From Macrostomum lignano (taxonomy: Eukaryota), in assembly GCA_002269645.1 (NCBI GenBank), contig NIVC01000514.1, positions 186,001 through 250,000 on the forward strand: a stretch of DNA of 64,000 nt, in the 5' to 3' direction. Of this stretch, positions 3,749 to 40,294 are shown in pieces. Position 1 is the first letter of the stretch. The number at the start of each line of letters is the position of its first letter. The translations under genes and the position numbers were made by a program. Below the pieces are notes generated by a model. The model saw only the letters and a list, made by a program, of their open reading frames with translations. It had not been told where the DNA came from and did no database searches.

Positions 3749-3959
3749 TGTCGTGCCGTGAATTTGGCATAAAGAAACTCAAGGTTTATTTTAACTAGCA
3801 AGTAGCTTATTAAATAATGACACGAGCAAGGGCCGAGAGAACACCGAAATAAAGTCACGTGATGATAAATAACTACGTACAAGTACATGGCGGCTTAGGG
3901 GATGGCCAGTCAGAGCGAAGGGAGAGGAAAGAATGGTGTGCACGTACGATGCACGTACA
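3749..3959 (-). repeat. 5' LTR (~211 bp) of the left Gypsy element
   Basis: On the minus strand it begins TGTACG and ends CGACA, carries AATAAA (+ strand TTTATT at ~3785), and is followed by a TGGCG PBS-like sequence. The partner LTR is outside the window. Confidence 0.7.
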
Positions 3960-7000: not shown

Positions 7001-10000
7001 CTTTAAAAAGTAAATTTAGCACTTACCACCTTTACACTATTTATAATTCAAGCTTCAAGATGCCTTTATTTTGCACATGGGTCTCTCTGTCTCAGTCCAC
7101 TTTCTCACCTTCTCAACTTTCGAAGAACAAATCTCAGTCTAGTAAGAGCTGCGTGCCTGGTTGTATGGGATTCAAAGGTGTATCGATTTAGATGAGTGCC
7201 AGTGCAGCTGGGTGCCAGTGCAGGTGAGTGCCAGTGCAGCTGGGTGCCAGTGCAGGTGAGTGCCAGTGCAGGTGAGTGGCAGTGCAGGTGAGTGCCAGTG
7301 CAGCTGAGTGCCAGTGCAGGTGGGTGCCAGTGCAAGTGAGTGCCAGTGCAGCTGGGTGCCAGTGCAGGTGAGTGGCAGTGCAGGTGAGTGGCAGTGCAGG
7401 TGAGTGGCAGTGCAGATGGATGCCAGTGCAGGTGAGTGCCAGTGCAGGTGAGTGGCAGTGCAGGTGAGTGGCAGTGCAGGTGAGTGGCAGTGCAGGTGAG
7501 TGGCAGTGCAGCTGAGTGCCAGTGCAGGTGGGTGCCAGTGCAAGTGAGTGCCAGTGCAGGTGGGTGCCAGTGCAGGTGAGTGCCAGTGCAGATGAGTGCC
7601 AGTGCAGGTGAGTGGCAGTGCAGCTGAGTGGCAGTGCAGGTGAGTGGCAGTGCAGCTGAGTGCCAGTGCAGCTGGGTGCCAGTGCAAGTGAGTGCCAGTG
7701 CAGGTGGGTGCCAGTGCAGGTGAGTGCCAGTGCAGATGAGTGCCAGTGCAGGTGAGTGGCAGTGCAGGTGAGTGGCAGTGCAGGTGAGTGGCAGTGCAGG
7801 TGAGTGGCAGTGCAGGTGAGTGGCAGTGCAGGTGAGTGGCAGTGCAGGTGAGTGGCAGTGCAGGTGAGTGGCAGTGCAGATGGATGCCAGTGCAGGTGAG
7901 TGGCAGTGCAGGTGAGTGGCAGTGCAGCTGAGTGCCAGTGCAGGTGGGTGCCAGTGCAAGTGAGTGCCAGTGCAGGTGGGTGCCAGTGCAGGTGAGTGCC
8001 AGTGCAGGTGGGTGCCAGTGCAGGTGAGTGCCAGTGCAGGTGAGTGCCAGTGCAGGTGAGTGCCAGTGCAGATGAAGCACGCCATCCGCTCCCCAATCTC
8101 TGCACTCACGCAGCCTTCTCAGTTTCTCACTCGCCAATCCTCACAGTGCCGCAGCTCACAGCAGCCGTGGCCAGGTGGCTCGGTGAGTTTTGACTTCGAG
8201 TTCGACCTTCAATTGTCTTCTTCTCTCATACTCGCCAGTTGGATTGGAAATAATCGCTAATCTTTACTCACAGATAAATCAATTGATTATTTTCTCACTG
8301 ATTGAGCTGGCGATCTGCCACTGCATGTGGGATTCAAATCCTATTATACTAAATTGCTTTGAAGGCCACAGCATCCCTACACGCATTCCCTGCCCGCCCC
8401 GCCTCAAACTCCGAAGCTGCTCCGAAGGCAGCCGCAAGGTCTTCCGCGGCCGATGCTGCCGCCACTGAGCCAGAGAGCCAGGCATCCACAGCTGCCGCTG
8501 CGGGGCCTCCCCTGCCGCATCCCGTGGCCTCCATGCCGCAGCTCGGCGCGGACTTCGGCGGGGACGGCGGCCGCAGCGGCCACCGAGGCAGCCTGGACTC
8601 GGGGCAGGACGCCATGGTGGGGGATTCAATGCTGCTGTCGCCCTGCGATATGGTGGTTGAACCGGTGAGAAACCGCTGCTGCTGCTAGTGCCATGGGGCT
8701 GGCCGGCTGCGAGAGTGACTGGCTGGCTGCGGGAGTGACTGGCTGGCTGCTGGAGTGACTGGCTGGCTGCGGGAGAGACTGGCTGGCTGCGGGAGTGACG
8801 GGCTGGCTGCGGGAGTGAGTGGCTGGCTGCGGGAGTGACTGGCTGGCTGCGGGAGTGACTGGCTGGCTGTGGGAGTGACTGGCTGGCTGCGGGAGTGACT
8901 GGCTGGCTGTGGGAGTGACTGACTGGCTGTGGAAGTGACTGGCTGGCTGTGGGAGTGACTGGCTGGATGCGCGAGCGACTACGGGCTGAATTCGGAGTGA
9001 TTGGCTGGCTGTGGGAGTTACTACTAACTGTGGAGTGACTGGCTGGCTGCGGGAGTGACTGGCTGGCTGCAGGAGTGATTGGCTGGCTGTGGGAGTTACT
9101 ACTAACTGTGGAGTGACTGGCTGGCTGCGGGAGTGACTGGCTGGCTGCGGGAGTGACTGGCTGGCTGCAGGAGTGAGTGGCTGGCTGCGGGAGTGACTGG
9201 CTGGCTGCGGGAGTGACTGGCTTGCTGCGATAGTGACTGGCTGGCTGTGGGAGTGACTGACTGGCTGTGGGAGTGATTGGCTGGCTGTGGGAGTTACTAC
9301 TAACTGTGGAGTGACTGGCTGGCTGCGGGAGTGACTGGCTGGCTGCGGGAGTGACTGGCTGGCTGCAGGAGTGATTGGCTGGCTGTGGTAGTTACTACTA
9401 ACTGTGGAGTGACTGGCTGGCTGCGGGAGTGACTGGCTGGCTGCGGGAGTGACTGGCTGGCTGCAGGAGTGAGTGGCTGGCTGCGGGAGTGACTGGCTGG
9501 CTGCAGGAGTGACTGGCTGGCTGCGGGAGTGACTGGCTGGCTGTGGGAGTGACTGACTGGCTGTGGGAGTGACTGGCTGGCTGTGGGAGTGACTGGCTGG
9601 CTGTGGAGTGACTGGCTGGCTGCGGGAGTGACTGGCTGGCTGCGGGAGTGACTGGCTGGCTGCAGGAGTGATTGGCTGGCTGTGGTAGTTACTACTAACT
9701 GTGGAGTGACTGGCTGGCTGCGGGAGTGACTGGCTGGCTGCGGGAGTGACTGGCTGGCTGCAGGAGTGAGTGGCTGGCTGCGGGAGTGACTGGCTGGCTG
9801 CAGGAGTGACTGGCTGGCTGCGGGAGTGACTGGCTGGCTGTGGGAGTGACTGACTGGCTGTGGGAGTGACTGGCTGGCTGTGGGAGTGACTGGCTGGCTG
9901 TGGGAGTGACTGGCTGGCTGCGGGAGTGACTGGCTGGCTGTGGGAGTGACTGACTGGCTGTGGAAGTGACTGGCTGGCTGTGGGAGTGACTGGCTGGATG

Positions 10001-12331
10001 CGCGAGCGACTACGGGCTGAATTCGGAGTGATTGGCTGGCTGTGGGAGTTACTACTAACTGTGGAGTGACTGGCTGGCTGCCGGAGTGACTGGCTGGCTG
10101 CGGGAGTGACTGGCTGGCTGTAAGAGTGAGTGGCTGGCTGCGGGAGTGACTGGCTGGCTGCGGGAGTGACTGGCTGGCTGCGGGAGTGACTGGCTGGCTG
10201 CGGGAGTGACTGGCTGGCTGCAGGAGTGATTGGCTGGCTGTGGTAGTTACTACTAACTGTGGAGTGACTGGCTGGCTGCGGGAGTGACTGGCTGGCTGCG
10301 GGAGTGACTGGCTGGCTGCAGGAGTGAGTGGCTGGCTGCGGGAGTGACTGGCTGGCTGCAGGAGTGACTGGCTGGCTGCGGGAGTGACTGGCTGGCTGTG
10401 GGAGTGACTGACTGGCTGTGGGAGTGACTGGCTGGCTGTGGGAGTGACTGGCTGGCTGTGGGAGTGACTGGCTGGATGCGCGAGCGACTACGGGCTGAAT
10501 TCGGAGTGATTGGCTGGCTGTGGGAGTTACTACTAACTGTGGAGTGACTGGCTGGCTGCGGGAGTGACTGGCTGGCTGCGGGAGTGACTGGCTGGCTGCG
10601 GGAGTGACTGGCTGGCTGCGGGAGTGACTGGCTGGCTGCGGGAGTGACTGGCTGGCTGTGGGAGTGAGTGGCTGGCTGCGGGAGTGACTGGCTGGCTGCG
10701 GGAGTGACTGGCTGGCTGCGGGAGTGACTGGCTGGCTGCGGGAGTGACTGGCTGGCTGCGGGAGTGACTGGCTGGCTGCAGGAGTGATTGGCTGGCTGTG
10801 GTAGTTACTACTAACTGTGGAGTGACTGGCTGGCTGCGAGAGTGACTGGCTGGCTGCGGGAGTGACTGGCTGGCTGCGGGAGTGACTGGCTGGCTGCGGG
10901 AGTGACTGGCTGGCTGTGGGAGAGACTGGCTGGCTGCGGGAGTGACGGGCTGGCTGCGGGAGTGAGTGGCTGGCTGCGGGAGTGACTGGCTGGCTGCGGG
11001 AGTGACTGGCTGGCTGTAGGAGTGAGTGGCCGGCTGCGGGAGTGACTGGCTGGCTGCGGCAGTGACTGGCTGGCTGCGGGAGTGACTGGCTGGCTGCGGG
11101 AGTGACTGGCTGGCTGCGGGAGTGACTGGCTGGCTGCAGGAGTGATTGGCTGGCTGTGGTAGTTACTACTAACTGTGGAGTGACTGGCTGGCTGCGGGAG
11201 TGACTGGCTGGCTGCGGGAGTGACTGGCTGGCTGCGGGAGTGACTGGCTGGCTGTGGGAGTGACTGGCTGGATGCGAGAGCGACTACGGACTGAATTCGG
11301 AGTGATTGGCTGGCTGTGGGAGTTACTACTAACTGTGGAGTGACTGGCTGGCTGCGGGAGTGACTGGCTGGCTGCGGGAGTGACTGGCTGGCTGCGGGAG
11401 TGACTGGCTGGCTGCGGGAGTGACTGGCTGGCTGCGGGAGTGACTGGCTGGCTGCGGGAGTGACTGGCTGGCTGCGGGAGTGACTGGCTGGCTGCAGGAG
11501 TGAGTGGCTGGCTGCGGGAGTGACTGGCTGGCTGCGGGAGTGACTGGCTGGCTTCGGGAGTGACTGGCTGGCTGCGGGAGTGACTGGCTGGCTGTGGGAG
11601 TGACTGGCTGGCTGCGGGAGTGACTGGCTGGCTGCGGGAGTGACTGGCTGGCTGCGGGAGTGACTGGCTGGCTGCGGGAGTGACTGGCTGGCTGCGGGAG
11701 AGACTGGCTGGCTGCGGGAGTGACTGGCTAACTGCGAGAGTGACTGGCTAACTGCGAGAGTGACTGGTTATATGCTCCTACCTTTTACCTGCATGCTGTC
11801 GTGCGATTCACACCCTGAGGGCCGAGGGCGTGCCTGCGTGCAGTATATTGGCGCGCTTGCATGCCCTCAGGAGTCCGTGGAATGGGCAGAGTAGCCTCAG
11901 CACTGGTTGTGAGACACCGCGCCTAAAACAATACGCCAGGGTGCTCACAGCGCTCTTGCGAGTATTAATAAGCTCCCTAAATTGAGGATAATTGTCCCAA
12001 CTCATTCCAGGCTCTTCGCCAGCTAACTTTCCCATTCGAGGTGCGGGTGGCTCGCGAGCGAAATCCCAACATATTTGACCCCAACCAGCTGCGCCTGGAG
12101 ACCGGCGACATCGTGGAGGTCCAGCAGCCTGACGAGCAGCAGCCGGAGATCTGGTTCGGCTTCAACCAGAGATCGAAGCGGCAGGGATATTTTCCCTTCA
12201 ACTATGTCTGCCCGCTCTCCGCGTCATCGAAGCGCCTGACCAGCCACAGCTTCTCCTCCATGTCAACGATGGTCACGCAGACCGCCAACAGCAGCGGCGA
12301 CCTCATCGACAAATTCGTCTCGCAGCATTGA
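4050..12331 (+). CDS. Multi-exon gene (5' end outside window or upstream): RhoGEF-type RGS-like domain + C1 zinc finger + SH3. Exons 4050-4785, 5409-5525, 6538-6588 (tentative), 8147-8182 (tentative), 8372-8664, 12011-12331
   Basis: AG/GT sites with consistent phases. KRAAFSVYSTFL...EIQTKRRDG resembles the rgRGS domain of RhoGEF2/PDZ-RhoGEF. HLLRPVELDRIRACSACGKLLCG..QAMRCK|VGDCQVVSHRAC..C is a C1 domain. LRLETGDIVEV...WFGFNQRSKRQGYFPFNYV is an SH3 domain. Confidence 0.8.
4786..5372. repeat. 24-bp intronic minisatellite (CTGGATGAGTGCTTCATGTGGTGC)
   Basis: Tandem units start at the donor GTGAGC; source of the spurious ORFs 4615-5602. Confidence 0.95.
5568..5660. repeat. 28-bp tandem repeat, ~3 copies
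   Basis: AATTGACAATAGAAATCAATCAATGTAC repeated. Confidence 0.85.
5682..6080. repeat. 55-bp minisatellite, ~7 copies
   Basis: TGGTTGGCTAGCCAATGTACATTGCGGATTCCTTTCCTACCCCATCCTTGCGGCC units. Confidence 0.9.
6695..6892. repeat. 48-bp tandem repeat, 4 copies
   Basis: CTGCACTCGTGTGATAGCCTACCGTGAGCATATTTCACGCTACATAAG units. Confidence 0.9.
7192..8071. repeat. 16-bp minisatellite (GCCAGTGCAGGTGAGT), ~55 copies
   Basis: Direct observation; source of ORFs 7105-8137. Confidence 0.95.
8700..11765. repeat. 20-bp minisatellite (GGGAGTGACTGGCTGGCTGC) with recurring variant blocks
   Basis: About 3 kb array filling an intron. Confidence 0.95.
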
Positions 12332-15100
12332 ATGAGTTTGGGCTGTTCTTGTGAACAAGTGAATAAATAGACCTTGTGAATGAGTTTGGGCTGTTCTTGT
12401 GAACAAGTGAATAGACCTTGTGAATGAGTTTGGGCTGTTCTTGTGAACAAGTGAATAGACCTTGTGAATGAGTTTGGGCTGTTCTTGTGAACAAGTGAAT
12501 AGACCTTGTGAATGAGTTTGGGCTGCTCTTGTGAACAAGTGAATAGACCTTGTGAATGAGTTTGGGCTGCTCTTCTGAAAAAGTAAATAGACGTTGTGAA
12601 TGGGTTTGGGCTGCTCTTGTGAACAAGTGAATAGACCTTGTGAATGGGTTTGAGCTGCTCTTGTGAACAAGTGAATAGTCCTTGTGAATGAGTTTGGGCT
12701 GCTCTTGTGAACAAGTGAATAGTCCTTGTGAATGGGTTTGAGCTGCTCTTGTGAACAAGTGAATAGTCCTTGTGAATGAGTTTGGGCTGCTCTTGTGAAC
12801 AAGTGAATAGACATTGTGAATGGGTTTGAGCTGTTCTTGTGAACAAGTGAATAGACCCTGTGAATGAGTTTGGGCTGCTCTTGTGAACAAGTGAATAGAC
12901 CTTGTGAATGGGTTTGAGCTGCTCTTGTGAACAAGTGAATAGACCTTGTGAATGGGTTTGAGCTGCTCTTGTGAACAAGTGAATAGTCCTTGTGAATGAG
13001 TTTGGGCTGCTCTTGTGAACAAGTGAATAGACATTGTGAATGAGTTTGGGCTGCTCTTGTGAACAAGTGAATAGTCCTTGTGAATGGGTTTGGGCTGCTC
13101 TTGTGAACAAGTGAATAGACCTTGTGAATGAGTTTGAGCTGCTCTTGTGAACAAGTGAATAGACCTTGTGAATGAGTTTGGGCTGTTCTTGTGAACAAGT
13201 GAATAGACCTTGTGAATGAGTTTGGGCTGCTCTTGTGAACAAGTGAATAGACCTTGTGAATGAGTTTGGGCTGCTCTCGTGAACAAGTGAATAGACCTTG
13301 TGAATGAGTTTGAGCTGCTCTTGTGAACATGTAAATAGACCTTGTGAATGAGTTTGGGCTGCTCTTGTGAACAAGTGAATAGACCTTGTGGATGAGTTTG
13401 GGCTGTTCTTGTGAACAAGTGAATAGACCTTGTGAATGAGTTTGAGCTGCTCTTGTGAACAAGTGAATAGACGTTGTGAATGAGTTTGGGCTGTTCTTGT
13501 GAACAAGTGAATAGACCTTGTGAATGAGTTTGAGCTGATCTTGTGAACAAGTGAATAGACCTTGTGAATGAGTTTGAGCTGCTCTTGTGAACATGTAAAT
13601 AGACCTTGTGAATGAGTTTGGGCTGTTCTTGTGAACAAGTGAATAGACCTTGTGAATGAGTTTGGGCTTATCTTGTGAACAAGTGAATAGACCTTGTGAA
13701 TGAGTTTGAGCTGCTCATGTGAACAAGTGAATAGACCTTGTGAATGAGTTTGAGCTGCTCTTGTGAACATGTAAATAGACCTTGTGAATGAGTTTGGGCT
13801 GTTCTTGTGAACAAGTGAATAGACCTTGTGAATGAGTTTGGGCTGTTCTTGTGAACAAGTGAATAGACCTTGTGAATGAGTTTGAGCTGATCTTATGAAC
13901 AAGTGAAAAGACTTTGTGAATGAGTTTGGGCTGCTCTTGTGAACAAGTGAATAGACCTTGTGAATGAGTTTGAGCTGCTCTTGTGAACATGTAAATAGAC
14001 CTTGTGAATGAGTTTGGGCTGTTCTTGTGAACAAGTGAATAGACCTTGTGGATGAGTTTGGGCTGTTCTTGTGAACAAGTGAATAGACCTTGTGAATAAG
14101 TTTGGGCTGATCTTGTGAACAAGTGAATAGACCTTGTGAATGAGTTTGGGCTGTTCTTGTGAACAAGTGAATAGACCTTGTGAATGAGTTTGAGCTGATC
14201 TTGTGAACAAGTGAATAGACCTTGTGAATGGGTTTGAGCTGATCTTGTGAACAAGTGAATAGAACTTGTGAATGAGTTTGGGTTGATCTTGTGAACAAGT
14301 GAATAGACCTTGTGAATGAGTTTGGGCTTATCTTGTGAACAAGTGAATAGACCTTGTGAATGAGTTTGAGCTGCTCTTGTGAACATGTAAATAGACCTTG
14401 TGAATGAGTTTGGGCTTATCTTGTGAACAAGTGAATAGACCTTGTGAATGAGTTTGAGCTGCTCTTGTGAACATGTAAATAGACCTTGTGAATGAGTTTG
14501 GGCTGTTCTTGTGAACAAGTGAATAGACCTTGTGAATGAGTTTGGGCTGTTCTTGTGAACAAGTGAATAGACCTTGTGAATGAGTTTGGGCTGATCTTGT
14601 GAACAAGTGAATAGACCTTGTGAATGAGTTTGGGCTGTTCTTGTGAACAAGTGAATAGACCTTGTGAATGAGTTTGAGCTGATCTTGTGAACATGTAAAT
14701 AGACCTTGTGAATGAGTTTGGGCTGTTCTTGTGAACAAGTGAATAGACCTTGTGGATGGGTTTGGGCTGATCTTGTGAACAAGTGAATAGACCTTGTGGA
14801 TGAGTTTGGGCTTATCTTTTGAACAAGTGAATAGACCTTGTGAATGAGTTTGAGCTGCTCTTGTGAACATGTAAATAGACCTTGTGAATGAGTTTGGGCT
14901 GTTCTTGTGAACAAGTGAATAGACCTTGTGAATGAGTTTGGGCTGTTCTTGTGAACAAGTGAATAGACCTTGTGAATGGGTTTGAGCTGATCTTGTGAAC
15001 AAGTGAATAGAACTTGTGAATGAGTTTGGGTTGATCTTGTGAACAAGTGAATAGACCTTGTGAATAAGTTTAGGCTGATCTTGTGAACAAGTGAATAGAC
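12329..15100. repeat. 44-bp minisatellite, ~63 copies
   Basis: GAATAGACCTTGTGAATGAGTTTGGGCTGCTCTTGTGAACAAGT units; source of the 44-aa-periodic minus-strand ORFs. Confidence 0.95.
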
Positions 15101-15635
15101 TCACCTTATTGAGTGAATTATATAAAAATTAATTTTTATGAATTGCTGGCAAAACTTGTCCATAGCACAGGCAAATAGTTGAGATTCCGCGATATCAAAA
15201 CAATTAATTAATGAGAGTTGAACTCCGCTGTCTAGTTTTTATTAATCCCATTGTGCTGCTTTACTCGCTCGCCTGCTCGCTCTGCTTAACGCATGCCTTG
15301 CTGTACACAAGCTGTAATTCCCTCATTATTTGTTTTATCTTTTTATACCGCCTGCGGATTTGTATGCACTTCCCACCCCACCGGTTCCGTGTGTCTTCCT
15401 AATTGGCGAAGCTCACCTGGAAACCGCAGCCCCCGCCTGCGCATCCGGAGGCCATGACACTCGCGACCAAATTTTAACCCAGCTTGGCACAAATTCTAAC
15501 TTTTATGAATTTTGAACTGGAAAATATACTTGCTATTCTATACATTCTGAGTGTTTTCACTGCTCAAATCGTAAACATTTATTGAAATTGCAGCGTCTTT
15601 GGCTCTTCTGCACCGCTCAACAAACCATGAGCTTA

Positions 15636-28133: not shown

Positions 28134-31100
28134 ATGCAGACGCTGCTGAGCCTCGCCATCGCCCTCCTCGGCTGTCTCGCCGCCGGCGCCGCGGCCCAGA
28201 ATCCCTGCTGCGGACCGCGCCAGTTCCAGGCGCTGCTGGCCATCCGATTCAGCCCGAATAGCACCTACAGAGAAGTGAGCGGCCGGGGACCGCTGGTAGT
28301 GCATGGACCGCTGGTAGTGCATGGACCGCTGGTAGTGCATGCACCGCTGGTAGTGCATGGACCGCTGGTAGTGCATGGACCGCTAGTACTGCATGGACCG
28401 CTGGTAGTGCATGCACCGCTGGTAGTGCATGGACCGCTGGTAGTGCATGGACCGCTGGTAGTGCATGCACCGCTGGTAGTGCATGGACCGCTGGTAGTGC
28501 ATGCACCGCTGGTAGTGCATGGACCGCTAGTAGTGCATGGATCCTTTTAGTCTAATCAGCCGGCCCTTGTTGTCCATGAAATGCTATAGTGGTGCAGGGA
28601 CTCCTAGTACGAGCGAGTACAGGGACCGCTAGTACTGCTATTTCACTAGTGCCGCTAGTGACTGCTAGTATTTCATGGACCTCTAAGAGTCCAGGGACCC
28701 CTAGTTTACACATACAGTTCTTACCAGTAAACCAACTCAACATTGCTACGCACGCTACTACTCATCTCACGGCTGCTCTGCTGCTCATTCCTCAGGCCTT
28801 CTCCAACCTGGCGTTCGACTTCACCCGCCAGATGGTGGCCAGCAACGAGACGCTGATTGGCGGCCGCCTGGTGACTAACCAGCGCGTGCTGGTTGACGGC
28901 CACAGGCGTACGATGTACATCGTGGACCACCGCAGCCGCGAATGCCGCATCGTCGCCCTGACGCGCGGAGTTGAGGCGCCCTGCGTGCCCAGTGAGACTT
29001 GGAAATCGAATGCACTGCTGATTTCAGACTACTATTAGTAGCTTCGAGCTATTTGGCCCTTTTGATTCCAAAAAAGAATCCCAATTTGCCTCGCCGATTC
29101 GCCTTTTTCAGACAATTTCCGCGGCGAGGGCACCCTTCACTTCGGGGCCGGCAGGGACCTCCTCAGCTTCAACAGCTTCCGCGGCCGAGTGGGCGAGTTC
29201 GAGGCTCAAGTGTCCGTCACCAAGGCCTCTTGCGTGCCCATCTCACAGTCCGTCTTCAACCACCGTGAGTCTGTCAGCAGTGTAGGGGAGTCTGTCAGCA
29301 GTGTGGGGGAGTCTGTCAGCAGTGTGGGGGAGTCTGTCAGCAGTGTAGGGGAGTCTGTCAGCAGTGTAGGGGAGTCTGTCAGCAGTGTGGGGAGTCTGTC
29401 AGCAGTGTGGGGAGTCTGTCAGCAGTGTAGGGGAGTCTGTCAGCAGGGTAGGGGAGTCTGTCAGCAGTGTAGGGGAGTCTGTCAGCAGTGTAGGGAGTCT
29501 GTCAGCAGTGTGTCGAGTCTGTCAGCAGTGTGGGGGAGTCTGTCAGCAGTGTGGGGAGTCTGTCAGCAGTGTGGGGGAGTCTGTCAGCAGTGTGGGGAGT
29601 CTGTCAGCAGTGTAGGGGAGTCTGTCAGCAGTGTGGGGAGTCTGTCAGCAGTGTGGGGGAGTCTGTCAGCAGTGTAGGGGAGTCTGTCAGCAGTGTGGGG
29701 AGTCTGTCAGCAGTGTAGGGGAGTCTGTCAGCAGTGTGTCGAGTCTGTCAGCAGTGTGGGGGAGTCTGTCAGCAGTGTAGGGGAGTCTGTCAGCAGTGTG
29801 GGGAGTCTGTCAGCAGTGTGGGGGAGTCTGTCAGCAGTGTGTCGAGTCTGTCAGCAGTGTGGGGGAGTCTGTCAGCAGTGTAGGGGAGTCTGTCAGCAGG
29901 GTAGGGGAGTCTGTCAGCAGTGTGGGGGAGTCTGTCAGCAGTGTAGGGAGTCTGTCAGCAGTGTGTCGAGTCTGTCAGCAGTGTGGGGGAGTCTGTCAGT
30001 AGCGTAGGGGAGTCTGTCAGCAGTGTGTCGAGTCCGTCAGCAGTGTAGGGGAGTCTGTCAGCAGTGTAGGGGAGTCTGTCAGCAGTGTTTTAAGTCTGTC
30101 AGCAGTGTTTTAAGTCTGTCAGCAGTGTTTTGAGTCTGTCAGCAGTGTTTTGAGTCTGTCAGCAGTGTTTTGAGTCTGTCAGCAGTGTGTTAAGTCTGTC
30201 AGCAGTGTGGGGAGTCTTGCAGTAGTGTAGGGGAGTCTGTCAGCAGTGTGTCGAGTCTGTCAGCAGTGTGGGGGAGTCTGTCAGCAGTGTAGGGGAGTCT
30301 GTCAGCAGGGTAGGGGAGTCTGTCAGCAGTGTGGGGGAGTCTGTCAGCAGTGTGGGGAGTCTGTCAGCAGTGTAGGGGAGTCTGTCAGCAGTGTGTCGAG
30401 TCTGTCAGCAGTGTGGGGGAGTCTGTCAGCAGTGTGTCGAGTCTGTCAGCAGTGTAGGGGAGTCTGTCAGCAGTGTAGGGGAGTCTGTCAGCAGTGTTTT
30501 AAGTCTGTCAGCAGTGTTTTAAGTCTGTCAGCAGTGTTTTGAGTCTGTCAGCAGTGTTTTGAGTCTGTCAGCAGTGTTTTGAGTCTGTCAGCAGTGTGTT
30601 AAGTCTGTCAGCAGTGTGGGGAGTCTTGCAGTAGTGTAGGGGAGTCTGTCAGCAGTGTGTCGAGTCTGTCAGCAGGGAAGGGGAGTCTGTCAGCAGTGTG
30701 TTGAGTCTGTCAGCAGGGAAGGGGAGTCTGTCAGCAGTGTGGGGAGTCTATCAGCAGTTTGTTAAGTCTGGCAGCAGTGTGTTGAGTCTGTCAGCAGTGT
30801 AGGGGAGTCTGTCAGCAGGGTAGGGGAGTCTGTCAGCAGTGTAGGGGAGTCTGTCAGCAGGGTAGGGGAGTCTGTCAGCAGGGTAGGGGAGTCTGTCAGC
30901 AGTGTGTTGAGTCTGTCAGCAGTGTGTTGAGTCTGTCAGCAGTGTGTTGAGTCTGTCAGCAGTGCAGGGGAGTCTGTCAGCAGTGTTTGGAGTCTGTCAG
31001 TAGTGTAGAGGAGTCTGTCAGCAGTGTGTTGAGTCTGTCAGCAGTGCAGGGGAGTCTGTCAGCAGTGTGTTGAGTCTGTCAGCAGTGTGTTGAGTCTGTC

Positions 31101-34100
31101 AGCAGTGTGTTGAGTCTGTCAGCAGTGTAGGGGAGTCTGTCAGCAGGGTAGGGGAGTCTGTCAGCAGTGTTTTGAGTCTGTCAGCAGTGTTTTGAGTCTG
31201 TCAGCAGTGTGGGGAGTCTGTCAGTAGTGTAGGGAGTCTGTCAGTAGTGTAGGGGAGTCTGTCAGCAGTGTGTTGAGTCTGTCAGCAGTGTGTTGAGTCT
31301 GTCAGCAGTGTGTTAAGTCTGTCAGCAGTGTGTTGAGTCTGTCAGCAGTGTGTTGAGTCTGTCAGCAGGGTAGGGGAGTCTGTCAGCAGTGTGTTGAGTC
31401 TGTCAGTAGATTATAAATAGGGTGCAGATGTTGGGCTGCGCCCTTCCAGTGTGTATGTACTCGTACTTTTGTTTTCAGTTTTCATGCCACCCCGCCCCGT
31501 CCCCCGTCTCGCGCCCGGGCCAGGGTTTGTGAGAGGCGTAAGTCTCAACCCTGGCCTAGCCCTTTGCACCCAGCCCCCGGCCCAATCTCTGTCCAATCTG
31601 GGTGCCCCCCCCCTCCCTCGTTGCCCGCCTCACCCTGGGGCTGCTCGTATTGGCTGGCTGGCTGATAAGCCGGCTGGGCCCCAGGGTTTGGCTCGCCGTC
31701 TCCAGTCTGCCCCACCCCTTCCCCCTTTTTTGTGTATTATTTAAATGCTAGCCCTGAGCGGGCTGCGCTCCACGTGGCTCTCTATTGGTGTCCGCTTCGT
31801 TCTTACTGTTTTTGCGTTCATCGGCGTACCTCTGCTTCGTGCCAATAAACGCTTCGTTAGTAACTCGATATATCAAGGAGAGGTGAGCTCGAGCTTTCGT
31901 TCTTCTGGGTTGCCGCGTGGGGCCGGGATCTGCAGGGACCTGGGGACGGTGAACTCTCGCCGATCCCAGGGTGTTCGGTCAGGCGAACTCTCGCCGAACC
32001 GAGCGAGACAGGGTAGGAATAGCCGGGGTGAGGGCTGGGACCGGGGTGTCTCAGGCGGGGAGGGCCCGAACCTTGACCCGTCCAGCGGCCATTAGGCCGA
32101 GACACAACAAGTGGTGCCGTGACCAGGATCAGCGGTCCTCTCCCCTGCTGTCCTGCCGTGTGTTTAGGGTTGTGTGTGTTGCCTAGTTTATTTGTGTGTT
32201 GTTTGCTTCGGTTGTCTCTGTGTTTTTGTAGCCATGGCCAATTTAGACGATCTGATTGACGCCCTGACGGCGCGTCTGCAAAACGAACTTAATGTGGCAC
32301 AGCGGGTGCCGAGGCCAAATAAGTACGTGCCCACACAGGACTTTGCCCTTTGGATGCAACAATTCACAGGGTATTGTGAGGCGGCTCATATTCTAGGGGA
32401 TCAGCGCAAGCAGGCGCTGCTCAGTCTGCTTGACTTTAATACTGCTTTTAAGGCTGTTGCGAATCTTGAGTTGGCCGATGATTTGCCGTATGATGAGTTT
32501 GTTGAGCAGCTAGAGGCTAGGTTTGATGAGAATAGGACTGCTCAAGATTACAAGACCGAGTTCCAGAGTAGGAATCAGAAAGATGGCGAGCCCATTGAAG
32601 AATATGCAGACGTGCTCAAGGAGCTTATGAGAAAATCGTACCCAATGCTGCCAGCGGCCCAGCGAGAAGAGTTGGTGAAAGACAGGTTTTTGAAGGGGAT
32701 TCGGGTGCCAGCCCGGGTGCTGGAGAGCGTGCTGCTGCAAGCGCCAGAGACGCTCCAGGACGCTATTAGGCGGGTGCGTCAAGTGAGGGCATCGTTGGCT
32801 CTGATGGAGCCCGAGGGCAAGCGAGCTGTGCACATGGTGGGGGTCAGGCCGCAGCGGCTGGCAACAGCCAGGAGTCCAGGGCAGCCGCCGAGATAGCAGC
32901 TCTGAAAGCGGAAGTGGCTCAGCTAAAAGCAAGTGCTGCAGCGCCCACTGCGCCGATGGCGACAGCAAGGTCTGAGCAGCCAAAAGTGAGCTTGCAGCAT
33001 CGAGCCCCTGAGCAGAGTCAGCAGCAGAGGCAGTGTGGTCGGTGCCTGCAGACAGGGCATACTACGGCTCGGTGCCGTAATGCAGTGGTCTGCCGGGAGT
33101 GTGGCCAGTCAGGGCACATGCGCAACCGCTGCTATCGTCGGTGGGACCAGTCGGGTTCGGGAAACGGATTGGGGGCTCGGCCGGGGCACCCGTCCGGGCC
33201 CCAGCGTCAGTGAATCCGGGTGCATCGGGGGCCGCGGCCTTGTCCCAGAGTGTGCTGAGTCGGCAGGGACTGGGCTATGTGGATGCACAGTTTAGGTTTG
33301 GGCCCCCGATTGCATGTCTGCTTGACAGCGGGGCCACCGTGTCGTTGTTAAGCAACCGTTTCCTGAAGTCTAAAAAAGCCGACATTGACTTATTGCCGAA
33401 TTTGCCGAATTTTTCCGTTTTCGCTGCCAATGGGGAACCGATTGCTGTACATGGAATGGTGACGATGAAGTTTTCTGTTGGGGACACCGAGTTTTTGCAC
33501 GAGTTCGCTGTGGTCGAGGAACTGGCTGTGGCATGTATTCTGGGCACTGACTTTTTCGTGAGACACGGGATGGCGATTGACTTTGCTAGGAATTGCTTGC
33601 AGACTGCATCCTGTGTGTATCCGTTTCGCTTATCAGCAGATAAGCCGCGTCTTTGCCGTCTGGTGCTGAGTCAGCCTGAGCAGTTCAATGCAGGTCAAGA
33701 GAAGGTGGTGCACGTCAGGTTGCAGAGAAGGGTTCCCTCTGGGGTTCAGTTCCTAGGCATTGTGGAGTCTGAGAGGAGAGTGAGTAACGAGCAGATGGTG
33801 GCCAGATCGGTACAGATGCCTGACGGGGACGGTCGCTTGGCTGTCAGGGTGTTGAACACGTCAGGATGCAGTCTGTCATTAAGGAAGGGAAGCCGAATTG
33901 GTTGGTTCTCCCCAGTGGCGGCCCAGCAGCCAGCTGGGTGGCAGGTGAACTCGGTGGAGAGTGTCCGAGACGACTGGAACCCCCTCAGCGATGTCAAGGA
34001 GTGGGGAGGATGTGGCCTGACGGGCGATGAGAAGCACGAGTTTGAGCGCCTGATGGCTCGGAATCGTGATGTCTTTGCCAGGGATAGCTCGGAGTTGGGA

Positions 34101-37100
34101 CAGTCACACTTGATGGCGCATGAGATTGACACCGGCAACGCCAAGCCAGTAAGTCAGCCCGCGCGTAGGATTCCACCGCGCTGGAAGGAGGAAATTGATA
34201 AGCAGGTTGATGAGTTGTTGCAGCAGGATCGCATCTATCCCTGCTACTCTCCGTGGGCGAGCCCGATCGTGCCGGTTAAAAAGGCCGACGGTAGCTTGAG
34301 GTTGTGTCTAGACTATCGGCGCCTTAACGAGGTCACAGTGCCAGATCCTTACCCACCGCCGCGGATGGACGAGACGCTTGATGCGCTAGGAGGGAACTGT
34401 GTTTTCTCGACGATGGATCTGGCCTCCGGCTATCATCAGTGCCCGATTGAGCCGAAGGACCAGTTGAAAACGGCGTTCGTGGTACCCAACAGGGGTCAGT
34501 TCGCCTGGAAGTGCATGAGTTTTGGCTTGCGCAATGCTCCCGCCACGTTCGCCAGGCTAATGTCTATGGCCCTGTCTGAGGTTAACTGGAAGGAGTGCCT
34601 GGTGTACTTTGACGATATAGTCGTGTTCGCCAAGTCGGTGGGTCAGCATCTCGAGCGATTGAAGCATGTTTTCCAGTGCCTGAGGGATGCCAATGTCAAG
34701 CTGAAGCCCGCCAAGTGTGTGTTCCTCGCAGAGCGGGTGAAGTTTCTGGGCCACATCGTCTCTCAGGAGGGGATCGCAACGGATCCGAGCAAGTGCGAGG
34801 AGATCCAGAATTGGCCGAGGCCATGTAGCGCCAAGAAGGTGCAGGCATTCCTGGGTACGTGCGCCTACTATCAGTCATTTATCCCGCAGTTTTCAGAGAT
34901 TGCAGCGCCGCTGTATAGGTTAACCGCAGACGGAGTGAAGTTTGAGTGGGGTAGTGAAGAGGAGAGCTCGTTTTGCAGGCTGAAAGACGCTTTGTGTTCA
35001 CCGAATGTGATGGCATTCCCGGATTTTTCGCCTGGTGCCGGGGAGTTCATCCTCGACACGGACGCCAGTTCGCGCGTCGGGCTGGGAGCCGTCCTGTCAC
35101 AGCGTCAAGCAGATGGCCGTGAGAAGGTGATCGCTTACGGGTCTAGGATGATTCATGCGGCGGAGAAAAATTATTGCACCACCAGGTTAGAGTTGCTTGC
35201 CGTCGTGCACTTCGTCAAAAAGTATAGGTACTATTTGTTAGGTAGAAAGTTCACTGTTCGTTCAGACCACAAAGCTTTGCAGTGGCTAGCCAGTCTGAAG
35301 GACGTAGAGGGTCAGTGCGCAAGGTGGCTTGAGTCGCTCCAGAACTTCGACTTTGAGATCATTCACAGGCCAGGCAAGGAGCACGGCAACGCTGATTCGC
35401 TGTCTCGCAAGTACCGAAAACACGCTGGCCATGAGAGCTGCCCTAGCTGCCAGTTTAGCGAGAATGTGCCAGTAGTGAACGCGGTGTTTGGCAGTGGGCT
35501 GTCTTCGAAGGAAGTCCAGCAGGCGCAAGTGGCCGAGAAGAAGCTTGCAGCTGTCCGCTCCTATGCCCTGGACCCGGGTTCGAACCCCAGTGCGCCTAGA
35601 GTGATGTCGTGGGAGGAGCGTGTGCTGTGGGCACAACGGCAGCTGATAAGAGTAGAGTCTGATCTGTTGTATTTTCAGAGTCCCGGGAGTGGGTGCCAGA
35701 AAAAGATCTTGCTGCCGCCGGCTTTGCTGCCGAAAGTGCTCAGTGAGCTTCATGATGGGGTTGCAGGAGGGCACCTTGGGGTTAGGAAGACACAAGAGAA
35801 AGTGAAGGCGAGATACTGGTGGCCGGGGCTGAGTCGTTCCGTGGAAGAGTATTGCCGGAGCTGTGTCCACTGTGCGAAGGCGAAGCCTGGGCGCAGCAAC
35901 CGGGCGCCTTTGCAGCCAATCTGCTCGGAAGGAGCTTTCCAGAGGATCATGAGTGACATTGTCGGGCCGTTGCCCAAGTCCAGAGGTGGCAATCGATTCG
36001 TGCTGACAATCCAGGATTCTTTTACTAAGTGGCCGGTGGCGGTGCCCTTGTCGAATCAGCGAGCCCCGACGGTGGCGCGAGCGATTTTTGATCACTGGAT
36101 TGCGCACTTTGGTTGTCCTGAATTTCTAGTCACCGATAAGGGCACCAATTTTGAGTCGGCTTTGATGAAGCAGTTGTGTCGGTTGCTTGCCGTTAAGAAA
36201 TGCAGAACGTCCTCCTATCACCCGATGGCTGATGGTCAGGCTGAGAGTTTCAATAAGACGTTGAAGTCAATGATCAAGTGCAGGATGAGTGAGTCGGTGG
36301 GCGAAGGAGACTGGGAGGATCTGATCCACCCGTCTCTCATGGCGTACCGTAGCAGCGTTCACAGAGGCACGGGGTACACCCCGTACTACATGCTGTACGC
36401 CAGGGAGATGCGGCTTCCAGTGGACATTGGAACCTTGCCTGAGTCCATTCCTGCCAGTGCTCCGGCGTATGTTCAGTCATTAGGTAATAGTCTGGCTGAG
36501 GCTCATTCGCAGGTGCGGACCAACCTGCAGCAGTACCAGAGGAAACAGAAAGTGCTGTACGACTCAAGGGTGCGAGGCCCGGCCATAGAAGTTGGGGATG
36601 CCGTCCTAGAATACTCGCCTGCGCTGCAGGCAGGGGAGGCAGCCAAGTTCCATTGCAATTGGAAGGGGCCGGCGAAGGTGTTAGAGAAGATATCCGATTT
36701 GAATTACCGGGTAAAGCACGCCAATAGGGGAAAGAGCAAAATAGTGCATTATAATAATTTGCGAAAAGTACCCGAGCGGCCTGAGCAGTTCAGGTTGATG
36801 AATAGGCATACGGCAGTGCAGCGCCGGTCGGCGCATCCGCCTGAGCCGGCAGGGTGCAGACAGGAGCCCGCGGGGCCGGCGACTAAGAGCCGGAACTTGA
36901 GGAGGAGGAGGAGTTTTACTCGTATGTGGTGCCACCAGTTGCCGTTGGGCCTCGGCATGGGATAGTAGGGCCGGGAACGCCAGTTGCGCCATGCGCACCG
37001 GTGGCTCCAGCGGCGCCAGCCGTGTCTCCGCGCAGACTGCGCGAGCGTCGGGGTGTGCCCCCAGCGTATTACGGGAATCCGGTATTGTATCGTTAATTCG

Positions 37101-40100
37101 CAGTGGGCTCACAAGGCGGTCGTCATAAATTGATTTTTAATATGCACTTGTATTAATGCCTCCACGCTGTTGTCTATGGTAGAAAGCCTAAAATAACCTA
37201 AAATGAAAAAAATGATACAACCCCAAAGCACAAAAAAATCATAAAATGGAACGCATGGAAAGCACGTAAAAAACATTAAATGTATTAAAATTACAAAGTA
37301 TGCTAGGCAAGAAGCGTTCTCAATCGTATTGTAAAATAAACATGTCATAGGATGGGTCAGGTCAGGGTCACAGTTGCTAGTCCGCAAGGCATAGGTAGTG
37401 ATTGGGTTTAAATGTCATCATTGCAGGAGGACCATGTCGTCGCCAACGACACCGACTGATTTGTATGGCGTGTTAGGCGTGGGTCGGACTGCTAACTCTG
37501 CGGAGATTGAGGCAGCGTGTAGTCGTCTGTACTCAAAGCGGCCCCGCGTCTGTCCTGCCGAGGTAGAGTCTCCGGAGTCTCAGCGAGACGTGATGGCGAT
37601 GTGCGTTTTATCTGACCCAGTGTTTCGGGAAGTATACGATCGGGTTGGAGAGGCAGCGTGTCAAGGGGTGTTAAAGTACGCCTACTTTTTCAATCCTCCC
37701 CCTGACGTTGAGTTGCCCGAGCAGGTCAGGTTAGCTTTGGCTAGTCTTAAGGGAAGCGCCGCAGGGGAAGCTCCAGTTCACGCGGAGATCCCAGCCGAGT
37801 TATTGGCTCCGGCTGCGCTTGCTGAGTGTAGGCGGCTGAGGGGTGCGCTGCTGGCGCGGTTGAGGGCTGGGGATAGTGAAGGAGCTTGCCTGGTGGTTCA
37901 GGAGGTGGCGAGGTTTCTTGATGGGGCTGGTGTGAGTGTGCCTGAGCAGTTGTCTAGATTCTTAGCAGTGTCTGTGTCGTTTCTGTGCAATCAGTATGGG
38001 CGGAAGAGAGGTTCTGGTGGTGGTTCCGGGAGGTGTCGGAGGGTCCCGCCTTCGGTGCTGCAGGCGGCGTTTGAGTGCGTGTTGTTGGCTGTGCGGGGTT
38101 TTGAGCTGTGTGAGTTGGGGGGTCCCTTGTTGGGGAGGCTCCGGGGTCTGTCTCTCTTAGTGGATCCTGGCCTCGCGCGGCGCCCGGAGGAGGGGAGTGA
38201 CGGGCCGCACCTTTCGCAGACTCCGCTGACGGCCCAGCGCGACTTGGCGACCGAAGAGTTAACGGGTGTCGACCCCGAGCAAGTACGACCGGCCGACACG
38301 GTCCAGGAGGTCTCCCCCCGTGACGACCCGAATCAGCGCAAGGTCAGCTCGGCTAAGCGTCTCGTCGATGCAAAGGCATACCTAACGAGGCTGGGCCGGT
38401 CGATTCAGCCCGAGGACCTTCGTGGCGTGCGTCGATGTCTAGCGGCTGTAAACTCGCCGTACTGCCTGCGTCTAGAATGTCCCGTTGTCCGACCACTGCT
38501 GCAAGACCGACGGATCGTGTTCGCCCTGGGCCTGAAGGCCAGTGCTGCACCGTGGTGGCCATCGCTGCGAGACGATGTACGACGATTTCTAGCGGGTAGC
38601 TGGCCGCGTGTCGTGGCGGTCGGCGAAGTCGAGCTCAATTGGGACGCTGAGAGGTCGCAGCGCCAGGACCAGTTAACGGCGGCGATGGAGCAGTTCTTGC
38701 TTGCCAAGGAGTTCGGCCTGCCGGTTTTGTTCCGAGTTGAAGGCGGCGAACCTGCCTGGGCGGTCGCCCTAGGATTCCTCCGGCAGCCGGAGTTTCAAGC
38801 GATGAGCGTCATGCTGGCCGAGGACCTGGACTTGCCGGAGGCCGTCGAGGCCGCGCTGGTGAGCAAGTGCCACGGGGTCTTCTTCGAGGTGTCCGCTCGG
38901 TGCCGAGGATCCCGCGAGCGGTCCAACGGGCTAAGCGTCTCCCGCGGCAGCGCCTGCTAGTGACATCGGCCGCACCGTTTGGTGGAGACCCCAAGGACCC
39001 GACAGCCATCAAGTTCGTGCCGGAAGCCCTAGCGGACAGTGAATGTGATCGCAGGTACTGGACTCGACTGTTTGCGACCAACTGTAGTAGATTTTTTGGC
39101 CGATTGTAGAGTAGAATTGCGTTCTTAAGCCCGTTTTCAATTTTTGCGTACGCAATAGTTCGTGTCCCGTTTTCATTTTTTCGTTTTTGTTTTTTGTAAT
39201 GCCGGCGATATCCACGCGTCGCGTCAAAGTTTTTCTGTTATTTTTCGGCCGTCGTTTTTTGAATTAACTTTTTTTCAGACTTGCTTGTTCATGCGTTGCT
39301 TTTTGCTTGACATCCCCTTTCTCCTCTTCTTTTTCGTGGAGGGGGAGGATGTTGGGCTGCGCCCTTCCAGTGTGTATGTACTCGTACTTTTGTTTTCAGT
39401 TTTCATGCCACCCCGCCCCGTCCCCCGTCTCGCGCCCGGGCCAGGGTTTGTGAGAGGCGTAAGTCTCAACCCTGGCCTAGCCCTTTGCACCCAGCCCCCG
39501 GCCCAATCTCTGTCCAATCTGGGTGCCCCCCCCCTCCCTCGTTGCCCGCCTCACCCTGGGGCTGCTCGTATTGGCTGGCTGGCTGATAAGCCGGCTGGGC
39601 CCCAGGGTTTGGCTCGCCGTCTCCAGTCTGCCCACCCCTTCCCCCTTTTTTGTGTATTATTTAAATGCTAGCCCTGAGCGGGCTGCGCTCCACGTGGCTC
39701 TCTATTGGTGTCCGCTTCGTTCTTACTGTTTTTGCGTTCATCGGCGTACCTCTGCTTCGTGCCAATAAACGCTTCGTTAGTAACTCGATATATCAAGGAG
39801 AGGTGAGCTCGAGCTTTCGTTCTTCTGGGTTGCCGCGTGGGGCCGGGATCTGCAGGGACCTGGGGACGGTGAACTCTCGCCGATCCCAGGGTGTTCGGTC
39901 AGGCGAACTCTCGCCGAACCGAGCGAGACAGGGTAGGAATAGCCGGGGTGAGGGCTGGGACCGGGGTGTCTCAGGCGGGGAGGGCCCGAACCTTGACCCG
40001 TCCAGCGGCCATTAGGCCGAGACACAACACAGACATTCAGTCTGTCAGTGCAGACAGTCAGTCTGTCAGTGCAGACAGTCAGTCAGGGATGCAGACAGTA

Positions 40101-40294
40101 AGCCACCGGTGTCCATCCCCACAGGCTTTCACGAGGTCGAGAGCTACCTGAACGTGACCCTCGGAGTCCGGGACCCCGCCGTGTTCCGCGTGCCACCGGA
40201 GTGCTCGCGGTCCGGCCTGGCGGTCAGCCAGCTGTCCCAGCAGCAGCTCCCCGCCAGCTCCGTGCTGATGAAGAGCTTCCTCCTTGGCTTCTAA
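28134..40294 (+). CDS. Ependymin-related secreted/lysosomal protein; exons 28134-28274, 28796-28991, 29112-29264, 40125-40294
   Basis: Signal peptide, PCCGPRQF, ECRIVAL...PCVP, SCVPIS and the C-terminal YLNVTLGVRDPAVFRVPPEC ependymin signature. Phases are consistent across the 10.9-kb intron. Confidence 0.88.
28286..28542. repeat. 18-bp intronic minisatellite (ACCGCTGGTAGTGCATGG)
   Basis: Direct observation. Confidence 0.92.
29265..31408. repeat. ~21-bp intronic minisatellite (GGGGAGTCTGTCAGCAGTGTA)
   Basis: The first unit starts at the donor GTGAGTCTGTCAGCAG. Confidence 0.95.
31429..32109 (+). repeat. 5' LTR (681 bp)
   Basis: TGTTGGG...CACAACA termini; AATAAA at 31844. Confidence 0.95.
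32112..32129 (+). other. Primer-binding site complementary to tRNA-His
   Basis: TGGTGCCGTGACCAGGAT is the complement of the invertebrate tRNA-His 3' end ATCCTGGTCACGGCACCA, as recalled. Confidence 0.85.
32234..33213 (+). CDS. Gag with two CCHC knuckles; one-base frameshift in the G run at 32839-32843
   Basis: Capsid-like N-terminal part, coiled coil AEIAALKAEVAQLKA, CGRCLQTGHTTARC and CRECGQSGHMRNRC. Adding one G makes the frame continuous. Confidence 0.88.
33159..33223 (+). promoter_or_regulatory. -1 programmed ribosomal frameshift signal (G GGA AAC plus H-type pseudoknot)
   Basis: The heptamer is in gag phase; stem 1 is 33172-33180/33194-33202 and stem 2 is 33186-33192/33217-33223. Confidence 0.8.
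33159..37096 (+). CDS. Pol (protease, RT, RNase H, integrase with GPY/F) in the -1 frame; tail restored by one base near 36885
   Basis: LLDSGAT, YFDD, TDAS..NYCTTRLELLAV, HHCC, DDE core, WKGP. The alternative-frame tail EEEEEF...RRLRERRGVPPAYYG ends at TAA 37096. Confidence 0.92.
37434..39109 (+). CDS. Retroelement ORF3: degenerate DnaJ J-domain + helical region + TatD-like barrel (one-base frameshift near 38918)
   Basis: DLYGVLGV.R.A..AEIEAA..RL...VLSDPVFREVYDRVG is J-domain-like. LVDAKAY, FALGL, VVAVGEVELN, QFLLAKEFGLPV and, after the shift, LPRQRLLVTSAAPF...NCSRFF follow the TatD motif order. Confidence 0.78.
39338..39349 (+). other. Polypurine tract
   Basis: GGAGGGGGAGGA directly before the 3' LTR. 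Confidence 0.9.
39350..40029 (+). repeat. 3' LTR (680 bp)
   Basis: Matches the 5' LTR; the only difference I saw is one C missing in a C run near 39631. Confidence 0.95.

Follow-up and report, generated by a model that had tools for sequence, protein, structure and literature searches.

The window analysed here, a 64,000-nucleotide stretch of Macrostomum lignano contig NIVC01000514.1, contains a Ty3/gypsy LTR retrotransposon at 31429-40029, with paired LTRs, a target-site duplication, a primer site and a polypurine tract all present (Table 1). A Pfam scan identified gag followed by protease, RT, RNase H and integrase, which is the Ty3/gypsy gene order, and Pfam scans of the element and of ORF3 returned no env family. 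The 5' and 3' LTRs were alike in 680 of 681 columns (99.85%; no mismatches and one gap); judged from this likeness, the element is young. The tRNA of its primer-binding site is probably that for His. The window copy has a frame break in gag near 32840 and another in pol near 36885, and 8 sequencing runs differ there. The element and a 2-kb minisatellite share one intron of an ependymin-like gene (window 28138-40291; weak matches), and contigs from four runs connect 29267 to 40125. Elsewhere in the window, we observed a second, distant RT-bearing element (785-3778, minus strand; 32% over the RT) and more long minus-strand frames at 8279-15128.

Table 1. Features of the retrotransposon and its third open reading frame (window positions)
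Feature	Position	Strand	Remarks
Target-site duplication	31425-31428 and 40030-40033		CAGA
5' LTR	31429..32109	+	TG...CA ends
Primer-binding site	32112..32129	+	read from sequence
gag	32234..33210, end approximate	+	PF03732, E 1.5e-5
pol	33081..37097, end approximate	+	protease, RT, RNase H, integrase
Candidate splice acceptor	37419..37426	+	predicted; 7 bases 5' of ORF3 ATG
ORF3	37434..39109	+	558 aa in uninterrupted copies; window copy with frame break near 38905-38915
J-like domain without HPD	37458..37655	+	residues 9-74; PF00226, PDB sequences, model
Five-helix domain	37809..38168	+	residues 126-245, basic loop; in all J-ORF3 families
TatD-like domain	38358..39094	+	residues about 309-553; Glu398 retained
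Polypurine tract	39338..39349	+
3' LTR	39350..40029	+

ORF3 was present as a single 558-residue frame in 10 of 21 genomic loci of the family to which the window copy belongs (family A), and was broken or partial in the other 11. Most of these breaks are frame slips, in copies that are 99-100% alike. In the window copy, the frame opened by the ATG at 37434 runs into a stop at 38960; VTSAAP and the stop codon at 39107-39109 both belong to a different frame. This break was absent from all four sequencing runs covering the place, and is either a lesion confined to this copy or a slip of the assembly. A preliminary description of this DNA had quoted six strings as motifs of one ORF. All of them were found, namely YSKRPR (R36 at 37539), DAKAY (38367), GLKA (K at 38535), GEVELN (E at 38625), PVLFR (R at 38733) and VTSAAP (38960), but they do not share one ORF in the window copy, where the last lies out of frame. 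The substitutions they represent are not peculiar to that copy: the J loop was identical in 20 of 23 loci, and the TatD motifs were the same in 19 of 21, the 19 being those of the 21 genomic loci that cover the motifs. A length-limited word-index protein search returned no match for either the whole ORF3 or the TatD alignment.

In 8 of 8 families, a pyrimidine-AG precedes the J-domain or its ATG by 0-25 bases; in family C, the frame is open upstream and lacks an ATG. These features suggest that ORF3 may be translated from a spliced message. Contigs of 8 presumed-RNA runs span the element and ORF3 but also extend into the flanks, and in 4 of these runs they join exons of the host gene. No joint to the ORF3 acceptor was found in the contigs of the 8 runs.

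The two outer parts of ORF3 resemble a J-domain and a TatD nuclease. In family A, the J part matched PF00226 with an E-value of 9e-5 and 22.9 bits, below the Pfam cut-off of 27.8, and the TatD part matched PF01026 with an E-value of 7e-6 and 26.1 bits (cut-off 27). Judged by these scores, both homologies are weak yet above chance; sister families exceed both cut-offs, with 35.3 and 31.9 bits for the TatD parts of families B and C. An Atlas match (score 0.93) backed the assignment. A predicted model of the J part matched J-domains (ERdj5: Z 8.2, rmsd 2.6, 71 aligned; Foldseek E above 0.001), and its top PDB sequence match was DNAJB13 (E 6e-5). Because sister families carry HPD, the DNAJB13 match is no proof of descent. 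The preliminary description was right that family A lacks HPD, as none occurs in any of the three frames and YSKRPR stands instead. Among 30 J columns common to at least 5 of the 7 HPD families, family A retains 20 and loses 10, the losses including the loop H, D and K and one helix-II Arg, while fold positions are retained. In the sections of PMC13254874 that are available, changes to HPD are described as abolishing Hsp70 stimulation.

All eight TatD strand motifs are present in order, the family profile matched TatD at 96.6% probability, and PDB sequences agreed; a single-sequence model of the TatD part reached a pLDDT of 39 and gave no confident fold. The TatD metal ligands were earlier described as missing altogether. 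Five are indeed gone, but the bridging Glu398 of GEVELN is retained, at a position that is E in 65 of 65 TatD homologs and in E. coli TatD, YcfH and YjjV. Family A has K314, Y316, R434, a non-His residue in beta-6 and A513 in place of the other five. In an alignment with E. coli TatD, YcfH, YjjV and TATDN3-like homologs, it reads KAY for HxH, K for the strand-3 His, R434 for the strand-5 His, and T and A where strand 8 normally has E and D. The sixth ligand site, the beta-6 His, went unmentioned in the preliminary description; its register varies between alignments, and the His is absent from family A in either register. Families B and C share the degenerate pattern, with four ligands lost and the first His of HxH retained (HAF). 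Across A-C, Arg or Gln occupies the beta-5 His position (R434/R/Q) and Lys or Arg the strand-3 position (K368/R). In the available text of PMC10085689, the bridging Glu of TATDN1 is the only residue at which replacement by Ala reduced both activities, and the protein was little affected by the replacement of one His or Asp. Because five of six ligands were lost together, a canonical two-metal site is unlikely in family A.

Other positions of the TatD part have become invariant. Families A, B and C share E398, E400, E463, E485 and R489, whereas the homologs have G in 65 of 65, S in 65 of 65 and S in 64 of 65 at the positions of E400, E485 and R489, respectively. The three new invariant Glu residues (E400, E463 and E485) sit at strand ends near the former site. 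Identity among A, B and C was 18/34 within two residues of the former ligands and 63/205 elsewhere (p 0.011), although strand ends are also conserved for the fold. From these comparisons, the pocket looks remodelled rather than eroded. Its domain has a net charge of +11 in A and of +4 and +6 in B and C, compared with -4 to -14 in three E. coli paralogs; some true TatD homologs are near neutral. As to the donor lineage, TATDN3-like homologs and YjjV scored alike. Host TATDN1-like and TATDN3-like genes (L074, L077 and L081) have introns and retain the canonical ligands.

A helical domain of about 115 residues, missed in the preliminary description, separates the J and TatD parts and is unrelated to either. 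It had no Atlas match and no natural PDB sequence match below E 0.3, the top rows being designed proteins, and its model matched known folds at the level of helical bundles only (best CarH, Z 8.1, rmsd 2.9, 80 aligned). The domain belongs to no known family, but weak fold matches do not make the fold new. A profile search of 1.84 billion representatives returned nine matches, eight of which were true relatives, none with a TatD part. The ninth, P0015, was rejected as a HEAT-repeat protein and false match.

Across families, ORF3 is built from a J-domain, an acidic linker and the helical domain, plus a chromodomain or a TatD-like part. The chromodomain was found in family G (E 1.4e-12) and again in P0014. 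The family G ORF3 at L132:2199-3182 (minus strand) combines a J-domain with HPD, a chromodomain and the helical domain, and has no SUMO-like motif. Family A lacks the acidic linker, with 12% D/E compared with 16-42% elsewhere. Many linkers of other families carry a hydrophobic stretch followed by acidic residues, and we take a hydrophobic core with an acidic tail to be the pattern of a SUMO-interacting motif. A relaxed form of this pattern, devised after the motif was seen and scored on related rows, matched 8 of the 13 linkers from outside family A (2.0 expected; 0 of 2000 shuffle sets), but a strict form was in no excess (3 of 13 against 1.7 expected; 438 of 2000 shuffle sets). Neither family A nor the two chromodomain proteins have the motif. 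For SUMO paired with the linker of family B, the predicted score was 0.26, compared with a mark of 0.34. Separately, an intronless SUMO-like ORF of 88 residues (PF11976, E 3e-22) occurs at L199:1471-1737 (minus strand) and at L200-L205. Its scores are identical at the 7 places, which lie on three contigs as inverted pairs spaced 7-22 kb apart, and it may be carried within an element's long inverted repeats.

In eight other families of this genome, searches identified relatives of ORF3 downstream of pol. HPD occurs in at least one copy of every sister family that has a J-domain, seven in all (B, C, E, F, G, H and I); in some decayed sister copies it is replaced by RPD or HLD, and the J part is missing from the family D copies. 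It also occurs in 5 of 5 outside representatives (P0009, P0011, P0013, P0014 and P0016), these being the ones that cover the J loop and are not copies of the seven families. The degenerate TatD part is common to families A-D and absent from E-I. None of the loci examined held a wholly uninterrupted copy with both HPD and TatD. In an RT tree with three outside rows, from which L063, L128, L135 and L137 were excluded as fragmented and in which L066 and L072 represented family B, the TatD-bearing elements formed one clade (99/96) inside the J-ORF3 families (100/99). A decayed J-ORF at L144 lies near an RT that falls outside the J-ORF3 clade. Two family B elements, with ORF3 at L066:3938-4480 (minus strand) and L072:6043-6584, have LTRs 99-100% alike and ORF3 deleted except for the second half of the TatD part. 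Metagenome scans for ORF3 returned nothing, or generic J-domains only (47 loci).

The preliminary description had proposed a coordinated loss of both catalytic sites, and families B and C, which pair HPD with the same degenerate TatD, contradict this. Because HPD is the usual condition and families B and C combine it with degenerate TatD, the losses are, on this family comparison, sequential: the remodelling of TatD preceded the loss of HPD, which is confined to family A. The acidic, SUMO-binding-like linker was lost along with HPD, again in family A only.

We estimated selection on ORF3 from pairwise Nei-Gojobori dN/dS. Within family A, whole ORF3 gave ratios of 0.34, 0.29 and 0.32 (p 9e-5, 1e-5 and 2e-6). 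By part, the p-values within A were 0.14, 0.077 and 0.021 for TatD and 0.0008 for the helical domain. The J domain of A had a dN/dS of 0.09 against L019 (p 0.001), and the comparison with L018 gave p 0.12. Taken domain by domain, selection within A thus often falls short of significance. Between B and C, the ratios were 0.15 for TatD, 0.09 for J and 0.09 for the helical part, with synonymous sites near saturation. By this measure, ORF3 has been under purifying selection both before and after the HPD and linker losses. The earlier suggestion that ORF3 is a retained non-catalytic binder thus survives in part, as the family-wide changes and purifying selection fit it, but the loss was neither coordinated nor complete.

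Both domains of family A are probably non-catalytic yet functional, as far as sequence can tell. We consider it evenly balanced whether family-A ORF3 is a binding adaptor descended from a protein that aimed Hsp70 at a target chosen by its modules. The ancestral ORF3 would have recruited host Hsp70 through HPD, with swappable modules picking the target, and Hsp70 would have dismantled the target complex, as SV40 T antigen does with Rb-E2F. Because of the chromodomain, the SUMO-binding-like motif and the basic loop, that target might have been the host silencing machinery on the chromatin or RNA of the element; this is the weakest step of the proposal. The available text of 10.1101/533091 describes piRNA silencing in Drosophila as requiring SUMO. 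The Hsp70 arm is likely disconnected in family A, where binding would go through the helical and TatD parts. The TatD part, probably unable to hold the canonical two metals, would likely bind a nucleic-acid end or phosphate through the Lys/Arg residues that replace His, and the J fold would serve as a structural or pairing surface, like that of Pam16 or DNAJB13. A more specific version is rather unlikely, albeit with a real chance: ORF3 would be a T-antigen-like anti-silencing machine, in which an HPD J-domain steered by the SUMO motif, the chromodomain or the dead TatD brings Hsp70 and strips SUMO-dependent and H3K9me-dependent silencing complexes from the element. Family A would then have dropped its Hsp70 and SUMO arms together and become a pure nucleic-acid-binding blocker, on the first pseudo-TatD known from a transposon.

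It may instead be that ORF3 is a shield, as the preliminary description also suggested: in the particle, the pseudo-TatD would cap cDNA or RNA:DNA hybrids at their 3' ends against host exonucleases, with the ancestral J-domain only aiding particle assembly. TatD enzymes are described as single-strand 3' exonucleases in the available sections of PMC10085689, and both the Lys/Arg on the phosphate side (K368/R, R434/R/Q) and the strongly positive family-A domain fit such a cap. Nevertheless, we judge it unlikely. The five families E-I do without a TatD part, although several of them are present in many copies with near-identical LTRs; the two young B-type elements retain only half of it; family G carries a chromodomain in the same protein; and the charge is modest in B and C and near neutral in some true homologs. 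An active TatD part, still a nuclease or another hydrolase with a carboxylate cluster replacing the histidines, is improbable. In its favour, five residues, four of them Glu, are identical in A, B and C, with E400, E485 and R489 departing from nearly all homologs, and the first His of HxH survives in B and C; moreover, TATDN1 tolerates single His or Asp loss in the portion of PMC10085689 available. The canonical ligands were, however, lost together, five of six in A and four in B and C, an Arg or Gln occupies the beta-5 His position, and the beta-6 register differs between alignments.

We regard as distinctly improbable that ORF3 began as a co-chaperone that helped the element's own proteins to fold and is now decaying in family A. 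The loss of HPD and the acidic linker and the 11 of 21 broken or partial copies would be expected of a relic, and we found no heat-shock element in nine LTR stretches (some of them partial) and no other link to a host target. Against decay, the A copies compared, none of which has HPD, show a dN/dS of about 0.3, the breaks are mostly frame slips in nearly identical copies, and the sequencing runs lack the window's break. The preliminary description had also suggested that ORF3 sequesters Hsp70, its HPD-less J-domain binding the chaperone and leaving it unstimulated. The J fold is retained, and ICP22 pulls down Hsc70 without HPD, so that HPD-less proteins can still engage Hsc70 (available sections of PMC13254874). 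But the residues lost in family A are those of the Hsp70-docking face, while the fold positions stayed, and Hsp70 is probably too abundant for a transposon protein to titrate. This reading is weak and highly improbable.

The binding adaptor that we favour has partial parallels. LTR retrotransposons of bdelloid rotifers carry ORF3s other than env, encoding a DEDDy exonuclease or a GDSL esterase (PMC5408684), and the flatworm ORF3 is likewise a captured host enzyme domain in a third, family-specific ORF at the env position with a likely spliced message. In the accessible part of that report, the bdelloid ORF3s have intact catalytic residues and show no departure from neutrality; in contrast, the flatworm ORF3 has a J-domain core and a degenerate nuclease fold, and selection on it is evident. 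The eight strand motifs and the bridging Glu, with the first His in B and C, resemble TatD group II proteins with HxH (YcfH, YjjV, TATDN2 and TATDN3), as these are presented in the available text of PMC10085689, but family A lacks five of six ligands and has three new invariant Glu and a J-domain fusion. SV40 T antigen and phage Rki also place a mobile element's J-domain beside targeting parts (PMC13254874, available sections) and offer a model for the HPD-bearing sisters, although they come from DNA viruses and have unrelated partner domains, and family A lacks HPD. The type IV pseudo-J proteins Pam16 and DNAJB13 retain the J fold with HPD replaced and are still functional, according to the same sections, but are host proteins. 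Inactive nuclease folds kept as binders occur in silencing in Maelstrom and EXD1 (PMC5408684, accessible part), an analogy to ORF3 only. We found no sequence or fold relation of Maelstrom, EXD1 or VANC to ORF3. VANC is a transposon anti-silencing protein, and makes element-encoded counter-silencing a parallel role.

In the literature searched, which left subscription journals outside, we found no J-domain or TatD ORF3. The main text of a 2025 survey of M. lignano LTR elements (PMC12801592) mentions neither, and across its available text and five supplements, TatD appears 0 times and DnaJ 13 times, in one expression table whose first row is a host gene. Accessory ORFs of LTR elements are already known, and the family-A ORF3 is a real and conserved form of the captured-ORF3 theme, apparently not yet published. 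One clade holds a natural series, from HPD with an acidic linker, HPD with a chromodomain and HPD with a pseudo-TatD to a pseudo-TatD lacking HPD, in a transgenic and RNAi-tractable animal. With this series one can ask by experiment whether retrotransposons of animals encode proteins that counter silencing, and what roles HPD-less J-domains and metal-less TatD barrels may have.
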